A stretch of 64,000 nucleotides of DNA, from assembly GCA_040005235.1 (NCBI GenBank), contig JBDTZG010000002.1:128001-192000 (forward strand). The letters are read 5' to 3'. The notes below the pieces were generated by a model. It saw only the letters and a list, made by a program, of their open reading frames with translations. It was not told the origin of the DNA and made no database searches. This stretch comes from Acidobacteriota bacterium. Lineage in GTDB: Bacteria > Acidobacteriota > Thermoanaerobaculia > Multivoradales > UBA5704. Position numbers and translations under genes: made by a program. Position 1 is the stretch's first letter, and each line of letters begins with the position of its first letter. Of this stretch, positions 24,922-30,315 are shown in pieces.

Positions 24922-26745
24922 ATGCGCGAGCCTACCCTCCCCGACCTACGGGCTTTTCTCGACCAGCTGCGGCGCAATGGCGACCTGGCGGTGGTCGAGG
25001 CGCCGGTCGATGCCCGTTTGGAGGTCCCTGAGATCCACCGGCGGGCGATCGCGGCGGGTGGGCCGGCGCTCTTGTTCACGAACGTTCGCGGGGCGGATTT
25101 TCCGCTGGTCACCAACCTGTTCGGGACTCCGAAGCGGGCCGAGATCGCTTTCGGCAAGCGGCCGTTCGAGCTGATTCGCCGCTTGGTCTCGCTCGCGCAG
25201 GAGATCCTTCCTCCCACTCCTGCGAAGCTCTGGGCGGCGCGGGACTTCGCGTTCGAGGCTCTTCGGGTGGGCCTGAAGCGTGGGCACTCCGGGCCGGTCT
25301 CCGAGGTGGTGACGAAGAGCCGGGAGGAGGTACGGCTCGATCGGCTGCCCGTGCTCACCACCTGGCCGGAGGACGGCGGGCCGTTCGTCACCCTGCCGCT
25401 GGTCTATACCGAGCACCCCGACGGCCACGGCCACAACCTGGGGATGTACCGGCTCCAAGTGCATGACGAGCGGACCACCGGGATGCATTGGCAGATCGGC
25501 AAGGGCGGAGGATTCCACTACGCGGTCGCCGAGTCGCGCGGCGAGACGCTACCGGTCACAGTCTTTTTGGGCGGGCCACCCGCGCTGATCCTATCGGCCA
25601 TTGCGCCGCTGCCTGAAAACGTTCCCGAGCTGATGCTCGCTTCGCTGATCGCCGGGCAGAAGCTTGGGCTGATCGAGGGGGTCGGCCCGCACCCTCTGAT
25701 CGCCAACGCGGAATTCGCTCTGATCGGCAAGGTGCCGCCTCGCGTCCGCCGCCCGGAAGGGCCGTTCGGCGACCACTACGGCTACTACTCGCTAGAGCAC
25801 GACTACCCCGTCTTCGAAGTCGAAAAGATCGCTCGGCGGAAAGACGCGATCTACCCCGCGACCGTGGTCGGCAAGCCGCGGCAGGAGGATTTCTTCCTCG
25901 GCGATCTCCTCCAGGAGCTGCTCTCTCCCCTCTTCCCGCTGGTCATGCCGGGCGTGCTCGATCTTTGGTCGTACGGCGAGACCGGCTACCACTCGCTCGC
26001 CGGAGCGGTGGTCCGCGAGCGTTACCGCCGCGAGGCGATGGCGAGCGCGTTTCGCATCCTGGGCGAAGGCCAGCTGTCGCTCACCAAGTTCCTGCTGGTA
26101 ACCGACCAGCCGGTCGATCTCAAAGACTTCCGCGCGACGCTGGTCCATCTGCTCGAACGGACGCGGCCGGAAACCGATCTCTACGTTTTCTCGAACCTGT
26201 CGATGGACACGCTCGACTACTCCGGGCCCAAAGTGAACGAAGGGTCGAAAGGCGTCTGGCTGGGTTTAGGCGACCCGGTGCGCGACCTGCCGCGCGAGTT
26301 TCAGGCGCCGGAGCTGCCGGTCGGTTGCCCCGAAGTCCACGTCTTCTGCCCCGGCTGCCTGGTAGTCGGCGGCCCGTCGTTCGAGAGCGAGCCGGGGGCT
26401 GCGGCTCGCTTCGCCGCGCACCCGGCGTTCGCCGACTGGCCGCTCGTGATCCTTTCCGACGAGCCGAAACGGGCCGCAGCGAGCGCGATGAATTTCCTCT
26501 GGACGACCTTCACCCGCTTCGAGCCGGCGGCCGACATCTACGCTGCCTCTACCGACGTCGTCCGGCATCACCTGTCGTACCAACCGCCGATCTTGATCGA
26601 CGCCCGCACCAAACCCTGGTACCCCAAAGAGCTGTTCGCCGACCCGGCGACCGCCGCCACCGTCACGCGCCGCTGGCGGGAGTATTTCCCCGACGGCAAT
26701 GTCGAGATGGGCGACTCGGACCGGGGGCATCTCGATCCGGAGTAG
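24922..26745 (+). CDS. UbiD-family prFMN-dependent decarboxylase (long form, menaquinone-pathway type)
   Basis: NLFGT, WPEDGGPFVTLP, NLGMYRLQ, EGPFGDHYGYY, VVGKPRQED, DTLDYSG. Confidence 0.92.
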   Translation: MREPTLPDLRAFLDQLRRNGDLAVVEAPVDARLEVPEIHRRAIAAGGPALLFTNVRGADFPLVTNLFGTPKRAEIAFGKRPFELIRRLVSLAQEILPPTPAKLWAARDFAFEALRVGLKRGHSGPVSEVVTKSREEVRLDRLPVLTTWPEDGGPFVTLPLVYTEHPDGHGHNLGMYRLQVHDERTTGMHWQIGKGGGFHYAVAESRGETLPVTVFLGGPPALILSAIAPLPENVPELMLASLIAGQKLGLIEGVGPHPLIANAEFALIGKVPPRVRRPEGPFGDHYGYYSLEHDYPVFEVEKIARRKDAIYPATVVGKPRQEDFFLGDLLQELLSPLFPLVMPGVLDLWSYGETGYHSLAGAVVRERYRREAMASAFRILGEGQLSLTKFLLVTDQPVDLKDFRATLVHLLERTRPETDLYVFSNLSMDTLDYSGPKVNEGSKGVWLGLGDPVRDLPREFQAPELPVGCPEVHVFCPGCLVVGGPSFESEPGAAARFAAHPAFADWPLVILSDEPKRAAASAMNFLWTTFTRFEPAADIYAASTDVVRHHLSYQPPILIDARTKPWYPKELFADPATAATVTRRWREYFPDGNVEMGDSDRGHLDPE

Positions 26746-27074
26746 GCCGGCCCGCAGCCGGCCCGCAAACTCCGGTATACTTCTCGCTGAATTCGCGACA
26801 CAATATCCTAGGAGGATCTAGTTGGCGGAACGTGTGCCGTGGAAGGGATTCGAAGGTTTCTTGGACTCCCGCGAGACCGGCCGCGAGATCTGGCGTGCCG
26901 ACAGGCTTCCTCCGATGCCCGTGACCCGGGCTCCTGTGTCTTTGTACCGCTGCTCGGTCAGGAGGAAAAGACTCGAGGCTGGGCCGCTGAGGGGACCGCG
27001 CCAGTGCGCAACTGAATATTGGTAAATCGTCGCAAGCAGGGCGTCCAAAACCAAACTCACGAAAAGGAGAAGCA

Positions 27075-27296
27075 ATGCACAAGAAGAAACTTAGCCTGGC
27101 CAGGGAAACCTTGCAGCGCCTGGAGGCCTCTCAGGTGATCCATGGCGCGTTTTCGCTTAGTTGCGTTGTTTCAGATTACTATACCTGTTGGACGGATTGC
27201 GATGCTTGCTACGGCTCGACGAATTGGCCAACCTGCGCGGGAAGTAATTGCAACACCTGCCATTCGGGTGGCTGCCAAACGAACCGGTGCGTTTGA
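27075..27296 (+). CDS. RiPP-like precursor peptide 1 (leader KKLSLARETLQRL, Cys/Ser/Thr-rich core)
   Basis: AAGGAG RBS; 73 aa; leader ends in HGA; core has 9 Cys and 12 Ser/Thr. Confidence 0.8.
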   Translation: MHKKKLSLARETLQRLEASQVIHGAFSLSCVVSDYYTCWTDCDACYGSTNWPTCAGSNCNTCHSGGCQTNRCV

Positions 27297-27327
27297 GATT
27301 GGCCTTTGGGACAGGGAAGGAACACAG

Positions 27328-27525
27328 ATGCGAAAGAAAAAGCTCGCCTTGGCCAGGGAAACCGTGCAGAAGTTGGAGATCACCGATGTGGTCAGTGGAG
27401 CCGTTCGCACCGCTGATTCATGTGGCTTTGAATGCACGGTTATCAGTGATGCGCCGACCTGTGCGGCCACACTCTGCGGTGGAAATTGCCACTCGGGTGG
27501 TTGCCAGACACAGGTGTGTGTTTGA
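27328..27525 (+). CDS. RiPP-like precursor peptide 2 (paralogue of peptide 1)
   Basis: GGAAGGA RBS; MRKKKLALARETVQKLEITDVVSGA-VRTADSCGFECTVISDAPTCAATLCGGNCHSGGCQTQVCV; core has 7 Cys and 8 Ser/Thr. Confidence 0.8.
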   Translation: MRKKKLALARETVQKLEITDVVSGAVRTADSCGFECTVISDAPTCAATLCGGNCHSGGCQTQVCV

Positions 27526-27528
27526 CTT

Positions 27529-27609
27529 CGCTCGGGGTTTAACCTGGGCGACTCGCTAGAATAGGAGTCGCGAAACCCACCCTACACCCCTCAGGAGGAA
27601 GGGTGGGTT
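27529..27609. repeat. Cluster of three hairpins (REP-like or terminator) between convergent genes
   Basis: cgctcggggtttaacctgggcg; gcgactc...gagtcgc; aacccaccct...agggtgggtt. Confidence 0.5.
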
Positions 27610-28063
27610 CGTATTCGCCAGACCTTAGGGCCCGTGCCCGCACACCGGGCTCAACGTCGACGCCGCTGAGAACGTGCTCGCGCTTCATCCGGGCGACGTA
27701 GTGAGGCAGCGACCACATGTCCATCAAGGTCGTGACGCCGAACTCCGCCGAACGCACCAATTTCTGCCGGTCGCGGGAATGGCCGTGGGAATCGATCAGA
27801 CCGGGCAGGAGCGTCGAGCCGGTGCCGTCGATCTCCGGCAGGTCGTGAGGGGCGTGAACGTTCTGGCCGACTGCCGCGATCTCGCCGTTTCGAACGACGA
27901 CCGTGGCATGAGGAATCGTCCGAACGCCTTCGAAAACCCGGACGTTGGTGACGGAAAACGAGTCGTTGTGCGCGCGGGCCAAGGGGGCCGCCGTGGCCGG
28001 CGGGGCGAGGAACGCGGCGCCGAGGGCCAGGGCGGAAAGAGAGGGGAGCGTGACATTGCGCAT
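27539..28063 (-). pseudogene. Truncated secreted amidohydrolase (N-terminal third only)
   Basis: Signal peptide, VTNVRVFEG, IDGTGSTLLPGLIDSHGH, FGVTTLMDM, then unrelated sequence and a stop; rest of the TIM barrel missing. Confidence 0.75.
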
Positions 28064-28281
28064 GACGGATTCCTTCGGGTATAGCGCTCGCCCGGAAAGC
28101 TCAGAAGGCCCCCGCGGCAAGTCATGGGTTTGTGGATGAGGCGCCGGACCCGGCGCCTGGATGAGAGCGATGTACGGAGTCCTCTTGCCAAGGTTGCATG
28201 GTGATTTCAGATGGTTTCGTTCGAGCCTTCGCGCGGGTCCAAGAGAGGGGTAGTCTTGGGATACACCTTCGGAGGTCCCTC

Positions 28282-29682
28282 ATGCGTTCCCCTCTGCTCT
28301 GCTCGATCGCCCTGCTGCTCGGGCTGACTTCCTTCGCCTTCGCCTTCGCCGACCAGCCCGCGAAAACGCTCCCTCTCGCGCAGAACGGGATCGCCCTACT
28401 CGCCCAGCCGCAGGACGACGGCTGGGATGTCCGCTTTCTGCTCGCCCACGTCCTCGACGGCACGCGAATTCGTTACCGCCGGCTCGGCGCAGACGACTGG
28501 AAGGAGCTTCTGGCGGCGAACGATCTGGCTGGGCCGCTCGACCTCGGGACGATCGGCACCGGCGAGCAGGTGGTCGAGGTCGAGCTCTTCGATCCGGAAA
28601 AGGAAAAGGTGACGGCGGGTCCCTTTCGGCTGTCGTTCGATCCTGAGAAGGAGCGGATCCGGCAAGTCCGGTACCTCCTGGAGCAGGCGGTGCCGAGCGG
28701 CTGGGTCGCTTTCAACGAATCCACCGAGGAGCAGATCTACGCCTACTTCGGCACCGTGTGGAGCCGCAAAGAGGCCCTCCGGTCGATCCGCTACTCGCTG
28801 GACGATTGCAATCTCGATTCGACGCCAGTGGCGCCGGGCTACTTCCCGATCACCAGCCGGTTCACCTACCTCTGCATGCAGTTGGTCTACGCGGACGGCG
28901 TGGTGACCCCGCCGCGAATTTTCTTCCAGCACCGTCCGGCCGCCACGGAGCATCCCCGCCGCCCGCCCGCGCCGGATACCCTGCCGGTTGCACCGGTGCG
29001 GCTCGAAAGCGAACGCTCCAACAGCGGCTGGTCGCTGTCTTTCCAGGCTGAGGATGAGGACTCGGTCGCCGAGTATCGCTATCGACTCGAAACCGACTCC
29101 GAATGGCGGTCGGGCGGCGAGCTCCCTTGGACGAACCCAGCGACGGGCCGCAGGGCGGGCAATCCGAAGATCGCTCTCGATCCCCTCCGGGTGATGTTCG
29201 GACCCCAACGGATCGAAGTCGAGCTCGTCGGCTGGGACGGAGTCGTTTCAAGGCCCTATGCCCTCTGGTTCGATCCCGACGCAGAGGTGCTCTCGATCGC
29301 CAAGACCACCTTCGCCGATTCGGATCAGGAATGGGGCATTTTCGGCGACGGGGACGACCAAGATTTCTTCTACTTCGCCGTCTTCGGGGTGCGGGATGCC
29401 TTGCGCGAAATCCGCTATTCGGTCGACGACTGCGCCGTCGGAAAAAGGTTTGAGTTTCCCCCCTGGAACGACGTCGCCGATTCGCCCCCGGAACCGGATG
29501 TCACCTCGATCCGGCTGCCGAAGGCGACGGCCTTCGTCTGCGTTCAGCTGGTCCTTACGGATGGCACAGTGACCGAGATCCGGAAATTCAACCACGCCAC
29601 AGAGGAGGAGGAAGAGTTCGTGGCGCCGGGTGAGGAGGGCCCGCCGGTTCACGGGGTCTCCAAAACGCTGCGTCGGCCTTAG
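28282..29682 (+). CDS. Secreted protein with two tandem copies of an unnamed ~190-aa domain
   Basis: GGAGG RBS and signal peptide; repeated motifs GW...YR...W...EVEL...FDP...ALR.IRYS.DDC...C.QLV..DG.VT. Confidence 0.78.
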   Translation: MRSPLLCSIALLLGLTSFAFAFADQPAKTLPLAQNGIALLAQPQDDGWDVRFLLAHVLDGTRIRYRRLGADDWKELLAANDLAGPLDLGTIGTGEQVVEVELFDPEKEKVTAGPFRLSFDPEKERIRQVRYLLEQAVPSGWVAFNESTEEQIYAYFGTVWSRKEALRSIRYSLDDCNLDSTPVAPGYFPITSRFTYLCMQLVYADGVVTPPRIFFQHRPAATEHPRRPPAPDTLPVAPVRLESERSNSGWSLSFQAEDEDSVAEYRYRLETDSEWRSGGELPWTNPATGRRAGNPKIALDPLRVMFGPQRIEVELVGWDGVVSRPYALWFDPDAEVLSIAKTTFADSDQEWGIFGDGDDQDFFYFAVFGVRDALREIRYSVDDCAVGKRFEFPPWNDVADSPPEPDVTSIRLPKATAFVCVQLVLTDGTVTEIRKFNHATEEEEEFVAPGEEGPPVHGVSKTLRRP

Positions 29683-29762
29683 ACTCACCCCATGGCCAAA
29701 ACTGAATTGACGCTACGCGGTGGGAATTTGGAACCCAGGTGCGGTCATATATGATCCAGGGT

Positions 29763-30002
29763 ATGCAAGCCTCCGATGCCATCATCGAAGAAGCCCTCAA
29801 GCTGCCGGAAGGCGAACGAGCCCGGGTTGCCCTCCGCTTGTCTGAGAGTCTTTCAGGGACGCCCGACATCCGTGCCGAAAAGGCTTGGGCCGGCGAGATC
29901 GCGCGGCGGATCGCTCGGTTGCACGAGGGTACGGCCCAGACGGTGACTGCCGACGAGGCGCTTTCGCGGGCTCGCGCCAGACTCGCCGCGCGTCGTGCTT
30001 GA
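29763..30002 (+). CDS. Addiction-module antitoxin (TIGR02574-like)
   Basis: EALKLPEGERARVA..L.ESL, AWAGEIARR; overlaps the downstream toxin. Confidence 0.85.
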   Translation: MQASDAIIEEALKLPEGERARVALRLSESLSGTPDIRAEKAWAGEIARRIARLHEGTAQTVTADEALSRARARLAARRA

Positions 30003-30315
30003 CCTCCTTGATGCCGCCAGCTTCGAGCTTTCCGATGCGAGCGACTGGTATGAGGGCCGAGCGGAAGGTTTAGGAGGTCGCTTCCTCGACGAAGCGCGGA
30101 ACGCCTTCTCTTTGATCGAAGAGTATCCGGCACTCGGTGGCCCCTGGCTGTTGGAGGGTGTCCCTCCCGGTGTTCGTCACTTCCCGTTGCAAACGTTCCC
30201 CTACTCGATCGTCTACGTCCTGGAGCCGCGAGTCGTGGTGATTGCGGTGGCCAATGCGAGCCAAGAGCCAAAATATTGGATCGATCGTCTCGACGACATC
30301 GGCCGCATGTCCTGA
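29995..30315 (+). CDS. RelE/ParE-family toxin
   Basis: ELSDASDWYE...GLGGRFLDE...FPYSIVY...VIAVAN..QEPKYW. Confidence 0.85.
   Translation: MLDLLDAASFELSDASDWYEGRAEGLGGRFLDEARNAFSLIEEYPALGGPWLLEGVPPGVRHFPLQTFPYSIVYVLEPRVVVIAVANASQEPKYWIDRLDDIGRMS

Follow-up and report, generated by a model that had tools for sequence, protein, structure and literature searches.

Precursors A and B are two small tandem genes in a 64,000-nucleotide (nt) stretch of DNA (the window) from the metagenome-assembled genome (MAG) of a soil acidobacterium. This genome, G000, comprises 6.22 Mb in 140 contigs (cited below by C numbers; other genomes are cited by G numbers) with 66% G+C. An original prediction, made from the letters of the window, had read the pair as orphan precursors for peptides made on ribosomes and modified after translation (RiPPs), encoded by two small tandem genes with strong ribosome-binding sites. 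Both open reading frames (ORFs) are found where it had placed them, on the + strand and each preceded by a Shine-Dalgarno-like run, with A at 27075-27296 (73 amino acids, aa) and B at 27328-27525 (65 aa). The start of B is the ATG at 27328, and a 127-aa ORF opening at 27142 represents upstream read-through in the same frame. The features of the pair are as follows.

27064-27069, + strand: Shine-Dalgarno-like AAGGAG before A, 5 nt ahead of its start (sequence read)
27075-27149, + strand: leader of A, MHKKKLSLARETLQRLEASQVIHGA, containing the LxLxRx5L box and ending in GA, the putative cleavage site (alignment)
27150-27296, + strand: core of A and stop codon, 48 aa with 9 Cys and 12 Ser/Thr, ending PTCAGSNCNTCHSGGCQTNRCV
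27314-27321, + strand: Shine-Dalgarno-like GGGAAGGA before B, purine-rich like the run before A (sequence read)
27328-27402, + strand: leader of B, MRKKKLALARETVQKLEITDVVSGA (sequence, BLASTP, alignment)
27403-27525, + strand: core of B and stop codon, 40 aa with 7 Cys and 8 Ser/Thr, ending PTCAATLCGGNCHSGGCQTQVCV
27530-27618, + strand: structured stretch after B with three hairpins, minimum free energy -45.5 kcal/mol, z -4.0, matched by none of 200 shuffles

A and B are 46% identical to each other (BLASTP, E 3e-18). The claim that their leaders are near-identical holds for the shared KKKLxLARET but not for the leader as a whole, in which 16 of 25 positions are identical. Both proteins end in PTCA...CHSGGCQTxxCV, as predicted. 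The leader box reads L6-S-L8-A-R10-ETLQR-L16 in A and L6-A-L8-A-R10-ETVQK-L16 in B, and each thus carries the LxLx[K/R]x5L motif. Both leaders end in GA, a putative cleavage site of the Gly-Gly type, and Ser and Thr together outnumber Cys in both cores (12 against 9 in A, 8 against 7 in B).

At the DNA level, the two copies are old. Sixteen of the 25 leader codons differ between them, 7 of these synonymously, and 9 of the last 14 codons differ, 5 of these synonymously. Because so many of the codon differences are synonymous, the protein motifs common to A and B have evidently been kept against considerable drift. A paralogue from the same genus, on contig C76 of G001, has a related core of the form SDxY[ST]CW...P[ST]CAG..C...QT..CV. 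Given this paralogue, the Shine-Dalgarno sites and the synonymous divergence with motifs kept, A and B read as real small genes whose likeness is more than chance.

A word-index homologue search with A returned A itself only. When a profile of A, B and the G001 paralogue was run against 1.84 billion representative proteins, 13 matches were obtained at E <=1e-3, comprising A and B (each its own singleton) and 11 others that share the leader only. No A/B-type core was matched outside the genus in these 1.84 billion proteins, among which small ORFs are probably under-called, because the G001 paralogue is not among the matches.

A GC-rich stem (ACCCACCCU/AGGGUGGGU, at about 27574-27608) lies in the structured stretch after B, which has a weak U tract and is a possible terminator; a consensus terminator scan gave no call for it. 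A sigma-70 consensus scan, which covers one promoter type, returned no sites in 26700-27800, and no direct or inverted repeats flank A and B in 26600-27900. A look for sequencing runs that contain 26000-28500 turned up no RNA run, only three DNA runs from a single study, two of which may be the source.

The leader shared by A and B recurs throughout G000. A motif search yielded 22 small ORFs that combine this leader with a tail rich in Cys, Ser and Thr, and a genome search with the profile built from them raised the family to 34 ORFs on 26 contigs (E < 1e-3). A (E 1.3e-9) and B (E 3.9e-8) match this own-genome profile, both being among its 22 building sequences. Thirty of the copies start with ATG and four with GTG, and a Shine-Dalgarno-like run precedes 32 of the 34. 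In the family alignment, T12 never varies and conservation is 90% or more at L6, L8, E11 and L16, and the 12-residue leader box has a mean pairwise identity of 56% across the family. Most paralogues also have a G[GA] pair, usually about 10 residues after the box. The cores are hypervariable: 16 of 561 pairs are alike (E < 1e-3), with A and B forming one of the two best pairs. Cys accounts for 16.6% and Ser plus Thr for 23.4% of core residues, and Ser and Thr together equal or exceed Cys in all 34 cores. One family member, at C24:59145-59363, consists of a leader only; its frame stops just after the ...AAAG end, a TAG falls within the match from the genome search, and it is probably a decayed copy.

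Only four of the 34 genes lie within 4 kb of a LanC. All-versus-all BLAST of the ORFs within 6 kb of the copies revealed no recurrent neighbour enzyme family, returning only common families such as TPR/kinase and ABC ATPase. Likewise, Pfam scans of 188 neighbour ORFs around 29 orphan copies found nothing recurring beside the precursors; they contained a radical-SAM gene on C58, a subtilase on C98 and several unrelated peptidases. A k-mer count over the 200 nt ahead of each of the 34 genes gave no clear shared upstream motif. The word CGTGGCA occurs in four of these upstream regions (C35:40922, C115:3177, C61:3557 and C98:31322), with TGGCAC in two of the four, and is reminiscent of the -24 element of sigma-54 promoters, the -24 part alone having been looked at.

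Candidate enzymes for such a family are present in G000, which has one full-length LanB, three LanC and one C39-peptidase ABC exporter, none of them linked to A and B.

C66:135688-139065: LanB, 1125 aa, with both Pfam domains, between an SUI1 gene and a solute-binding protein gene
C66:91766-94153: C39-peptidase ABC exporter, stand-alone
C35: LanC directly after two precursors, with a third precursor 3.7 kb away
C115: LanC directly after one precursor
C8:30051-31340: LanC overlapping the end of an M1-peptidase/HEAT gene, 123.7 kb from A on the same contig

This machinery looks intact, as the GxAHG, WCYG and CHG motifs are kept in all three LanC and the exporter retains its DCG Cys motif and NHFVV His region. 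Because two family members stand directly upstream of the LanC on C35 and one upstream of that on C115, a link between precursor and cyclase exists within G000 itself. The LanC on C8 overlaps by 4 nt the end of a gene for a 950-aa M1-family peptidase with HEAT repeats (G000:C8:30051-34189; L011:9054-13189); the two look like an operon, and the peptidase could trim the leaders of scattered precursors. No LanM (PF13575) match was found in G000, a result of little weight given that the same search was silent in control genomes too.

Leader and LanB also occur together in other genomes. In a class-level sample of 151 genomes searched with the leader profile, LanB and LanC, matches were found in 15, 20 and 51 genomes, respectively. 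LanB is present in all 15 leader-positive genomes and in 5 of the 136 leader-negative ones, a contrast that is descriptive and not a test, since the 15 are kin that fall in just seven genera. Leader matches number at least 36 in G000, at least 25 in a congener, at least 30 in another genus of the family and at least 42 in another family of the order; of the remaining leader-positive genomes, one has 7 and the rest 1-2 each. In the low-copy genera, the leader ORF adjoins the enzymes. Pfam-confirmed examples include G077, G089 and G027, where C39-ABC, LanA, LanC and LanB follow in that order, and G025, where LanB is accompanied by two LanC and two LanA. At G027:C7:27559-28988 (L053), six tandem leader matches, four of which are near-identical precursors of 55-57 aa, lie directly beside LanC and a long LanB ORF (1361 aa), followed by an ABC transporter without a C39 match.

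The LanB of G000 is 89% identical to that of the congener G004, which stands alone near an SUI1 gene just as in G000, and 47-49% identical to operon-linked LanBs. Identity to operon-linked counterparts is 55% for the exporter and 34-45% for the LanCs. In public contigs, the closest LanB relatives (85-94% identity) belong to MAGs labelled Thermoanaerobaculia or Holophagales, and a leader-family ORF lies within the 3-kb flanks of 22 of 77 LanB-homologue loci, including Archangium, Myxococcus, Kofleriaceae and Actinomycetota records. The pairing of leader and LanB spans phyla, because LanB homologues from the myxobacteria Archangium and Myxococcus (L081, L083-L084, L086, L092 and L128; 48-51% identity) have leader ORFs of the same type within 3 kb.

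Structure prediction of LanB residues 1-790 (alignment of 7) with residues 1-36 of A (alignment of 34) used alignments of our own making, for which the calibration is only rough. The LanB/A-leader fold scores 0.61, while the highest-scoring of its three controls reaches 0.00, although this may be memory of a solved complex; the 0.61 mark is reached by 116 of 157 solved complexes and by 2 of 215 mismatched pairs. Fold runs agree in at least 49% of contacts, with a partner pLDDT (predicted local distance difference test) of at least 49. In the predicted pose, leader residues 5-18 (KLSLARETLQRLEA) run along LanB 210-217, within a region (198-268) in which many residues are invariant among the seven LanBs aligned. 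The predicted strand-like docking of the A leader on the N-terminal domain of LanB resembles the NisB-NisA complex of the nisin system, reportedly a solved LanB-leader complex.

Taken together, these observations indicate that A and B are probably tandem paralogous class I lanthipeptide precursors (LanA), with an LxLx[K/R]x5L leader and a GA end, matured in trans by unlinked enzymes. The original prediction had named a trans-acting synthetase as one of its options, and this option is favoured because the LanB, LanC and C39 enzymes lie elsewhere in the genome, leader and LanB co-occur, operons join them in other genera and the leader motif fits. It had also named a condition that would count against it, namely that neither a cognate enzyme nor a leader family occurs in this genome or in relatives; both are present, and it stands on that point. 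Its assignment of the leader to the class I LxLxKx5L type agrees with the motif in PMC7268733 (Walker et al. 2020).

The mechanism that we infer extends to expression, dehydration, ring pattern, cleavage site and any activity of A and B. The leader box KLxLARETxQxL would dock in strand form onto the N-terminal domain of the single LanB (C66:135688-139065), which would glutamylate core Ser/Thr and then eliminate to dehydro residues. One of the three stand-alone LanC would add core Cys and close thioether rings, and the single C39-peptidase ABC exporter (C66:91766-94153) would cut after GA and secrete the peptides. In the shared end CHSGGCQTxxCV, two successive four-residue rings could form, Ser-x-x-Cys and Thr-x-x-Cys.

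Several findings weigh against this assignment. A Pfam scan of the 22 ORFs around A and B (13871-42683) detected no RiPP enzyme and no radical-SAM gene, and no LanB or LanC lies beside either precursor within 12 kb. Every LanC, LanB, C39 and SPASM match in the genome falls outside the 64-kb window. The orphan label of the original prediction is therefore correct. LanB is on a different contig from A and B. The NCBIfam model NF038153 (lant_leader_L1a, "class I lanthipeptide"; cut-off 22 bits) scores 32-40 bits on three operon-linked relatives and is a listed match for all of 12 other G000 paralogues (the top one for 11), at 13.7-22.9 bits. Just one of those 12 is above the cut-off, and neither A nor B has an NF038153 match or any Pfam match at E up to 10. 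The spacer from the leader box to G-A is 2 residues shorter in A and B than in most paralogues. Many [ST]-C spacings in the family cores are adjacent or one residue apart, which is unusual for lanthionine rings. GC3 (G+C at third codon positions) is 0.64 in A and 0.60 in B, compared with mostly at least 0.8 in neighbouring genes, and fits either recent acquisition or weak selection. In addition, because a LanB-leader complex has already been solved, the fold pass may reflect the memory of the model, or likeness, and not binding by this copy. A and B are thus divergent members of a described leader type, in agreement with it in motif, cleavage site and core composition and departing from it in curated score and gene clustering.

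The neighbourhood bears on the history of the locus. The flanking genes are as follows.

24922-26745, + strand: UbiD-family decarboxylase gene (Pfam), left neighbour of A and B
27539-28120, - strand: convergent 193-aa ORF to the right of B, where the rearranged stretch containing A and B ends on the right

The DNA of the UbiD gene is matched at 83-92% in six of seven congeners, the match ending at about 26743-26750 (query 1844-1851), approximately at the UbiD stop codon; in the seventh, G005, DNA identity is 78% and the match is limited to query 4-567. DNA resembling A and B is found in none of the seven congeners and is missing from the syntenic site in all of them, and the congener flanks fetched at the UbiD site contain no leader ORF. 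The 193-aa ORF has no Pfam match, and its LLPGLIDSHGH stretch is one that we take to resemble amidohydrolase N-termini. Over its residues 52-149 it shares 84% identity with a 446-aa ORF in G001 (residues 30-127 there), and it is a truncated 5' remnant of the corresponding gene. In G001 and G002, the UbiD and 446-aa-gene regions are separated by 5-7 kb. Because synteny ends at the UbiD stop codon and a truncated gene remnant lies to the right of A and B, the pair sits at a species-specific rearrangement junction. Further downstream lie a 494-aa ORF that matches no Pfam family and, at 29739-30315, 2.2 kb from B, a toxin-antitoxin pair of the ParE type (Unstab_antitox and ParE_toxin). Toxin-antitoxin and PIN genes are also found near precursor copies on C35, C18, C88 and C53.

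This setting bears on the view that A and B lie silent or are in decay, as recently acquired cassettes whose expression or processing has ceased or has yet to begin. Their absence from the syntenic site in all seven congeners, their position at a junction beside a truncated gene, the low GC3, the lack of a sigma-70-like promoter in 26700-27800 and the precedent of the leader-only stump on C24 are all consistent with silence. However, both frames are intact with Shine-Dalgarno sites, and the motifs persist although A and B differ by many synonymous changes, pointing to selection after duplication. A structured stretch follows B, and the promoter scan covers a single promoter type; silence is accordingly judged quite improbable. 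An export-only role is also unlikely, if somewhat easier to entertain. Here A and B would be double-glycine-type peptides that use the C39-ABC exporter without LanB or LanC, are cleaved behind GA, carry disulfides or metal and keep the leader for export alone. The pair is orphan, the exporter is intact, the cores have 9 and 7 Cys, and both peptides fail the curated class I leader model. Moreover, weak cross-matches of relatives to the bacteriocin-signal models TIGR01847 and NF046113 show that the leader resembles export leaders. C39 domains read the GG-proximal part of a leader, whereas the conserved box in this family is the N-terminal LxLxRETxxxL, placed on LanB in the predicted fold. Within the 151-genome sample the leader was moreover found only in LanB-bearing genomes (15 of 15), and no core has more Cys than Ser and Thr together. 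A and B can be accounted for without the related suggestion of the original prediction, a new peptide family with disulfides or bound metal, even though disulfides may still form.

Maturation of A and B by another unlinked RiPP enzyme, either a radical-SAM/SPASM maturase in a TIGR04149-type pairing or an enzyme of unknown kind, is very improbable. It draws on sub-threshold TIGR04149 scores for several relatives, one G027 peptide above the cut-off (27.1 bits against 25), three SPASM-domain genes in G000 and a radical-SAM gene about 1.8 kb from the paralogue on C58. Yet neither A nor B matches TIGR04149, the class of radical-SAM-modified GG-leader peptides, and all three SPASM genes lie more than 5 kb from every one of the 34 precursors. 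The 188 neighbour ORFs around 29 orphan copies also contain no recurring enzyme family. The G027 peptide that passes TIGR04149 itself adjoins LanC and LanB, so its match appears to reflect leader likeness.

Maturation in trans by LanB and LanC, the favoured reading, invites comparison with several known lanthipeptide systems. Like the nisin system (NisA/NisB/NisC), G000 has separate dehydratase and cyclase enzymes. The leader of nisin is of the FNLD type, its leader protease is of the subtilisin type and its genes are clustered, whereas A and B have an LxLxRx5L leader with a GA end, a C39 exporter and unlinked genes. Ring B of nisin is a four-residue S/T-x-x-C ring, and similar S/T-x-x-C rings could form in the CHSGGCQTxxC of A and B.

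The closest described type is that of the LxLxKx5L class I LanAs of Bacteroidetes, for which PMC7268733 reports the LxLxKx5L leader, a Gly-Gly end and a C39 protease. A and B are alike in the box, the Gly-Gly-type end, the Cys/Ser/Thr-rich core and, judged by the operons of relatives and by co-occurrence, the partnership with LanB, LanC and C39. The Bacteroidetes precursors are known from sites near LanC, whereas the host of A and B is an acidobacterial MAG in which the nearest LanC is 124 kb away. A and B further differ from the LxLxKx5L/NF038153 type in their below-threshold score, their GA end and a spacer 2 residues shorter. Pinensin, from Chitinophaga pinensis, belongs to the same Bacteroidetes precursor family with an LxLxKx5L leader and is made by a split LanB (PMC7268733). 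In contrast, G000 has one 1125-aa LanB with both domains, so the pinensin-like group named in the original prediction is only a loose fit, the LanB here being full-length. No resemblance to pinensin is apparent in the cores, its sequence not having been among those compared. A and B would be polycyclic, with as many as 9 and 7 thioether rings, respectively, and they bring two new cores to a precursor type already described.

The number and dispersal of the precursors recall the prochlorosins. According to PMC7268733 and the abstracts of PMC10783134 and PMC9872173, prochlorosins derive from numerous precursor genes that share a conserved leader but differ widely in their cores, and many of these genes are remote from the one synthetase gene. 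The many dispersed precursors of the marine picocyanobacterial systems (ProcM, SyncM) have a counterpart in the 34 copies on 26 contigs of G000. It is nearly as likely as not, and proposed here tentatively, that a class I counterpart to the prochlorosin system operates in this lineage. Such a system would comprise one LanB, a few stand-alone LanC, one exporter and 25-42 or more unlinked precursors with hypervariable cores and fast turnover, with A and B as a species-specific recent addition that has its own C-terminal double-ring module, CHSGGCQTxxCV. By lineage we mean, at the least, the genus of A and B, one further genus in its family and one further family in the order. In the literature, no account was found of dispersed class I precursor libraries (dozens per genome with a single LanB), nor of lanthipeptides of the host lineage, although the supplements of PMC7268733 may list related precursors; PMC13083261 describes class II and class III clusters in Thermoanaerobaculia.

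If correct, this proposal would imply class I enzymes that tolerate varied substrates and combinatorial biosynthesis occurring naturally beyond cyanobacteria and beyond class II, and it would be a second, independent case of library-style lanthipeptide evolution. Should the single LanB of G000 indeed act on dozens of cores unrelated to one another, it would be a class I dehydratase with natural promiscuity, useful for peptide engineering. The precursor search of PMC7268733 was limited to seven genes around LanC; cluster-based mining near LanC would report at most 4 of the 34 precursors here and would call LanB an orphan. The two systems differ in their enzymes and leaders: prochlorosins depend on a fused class II LanM and Nif11-type leaders, whereas the precursors of G000 have an L1a-type leader and are paired with a separate LanB and three LanC.

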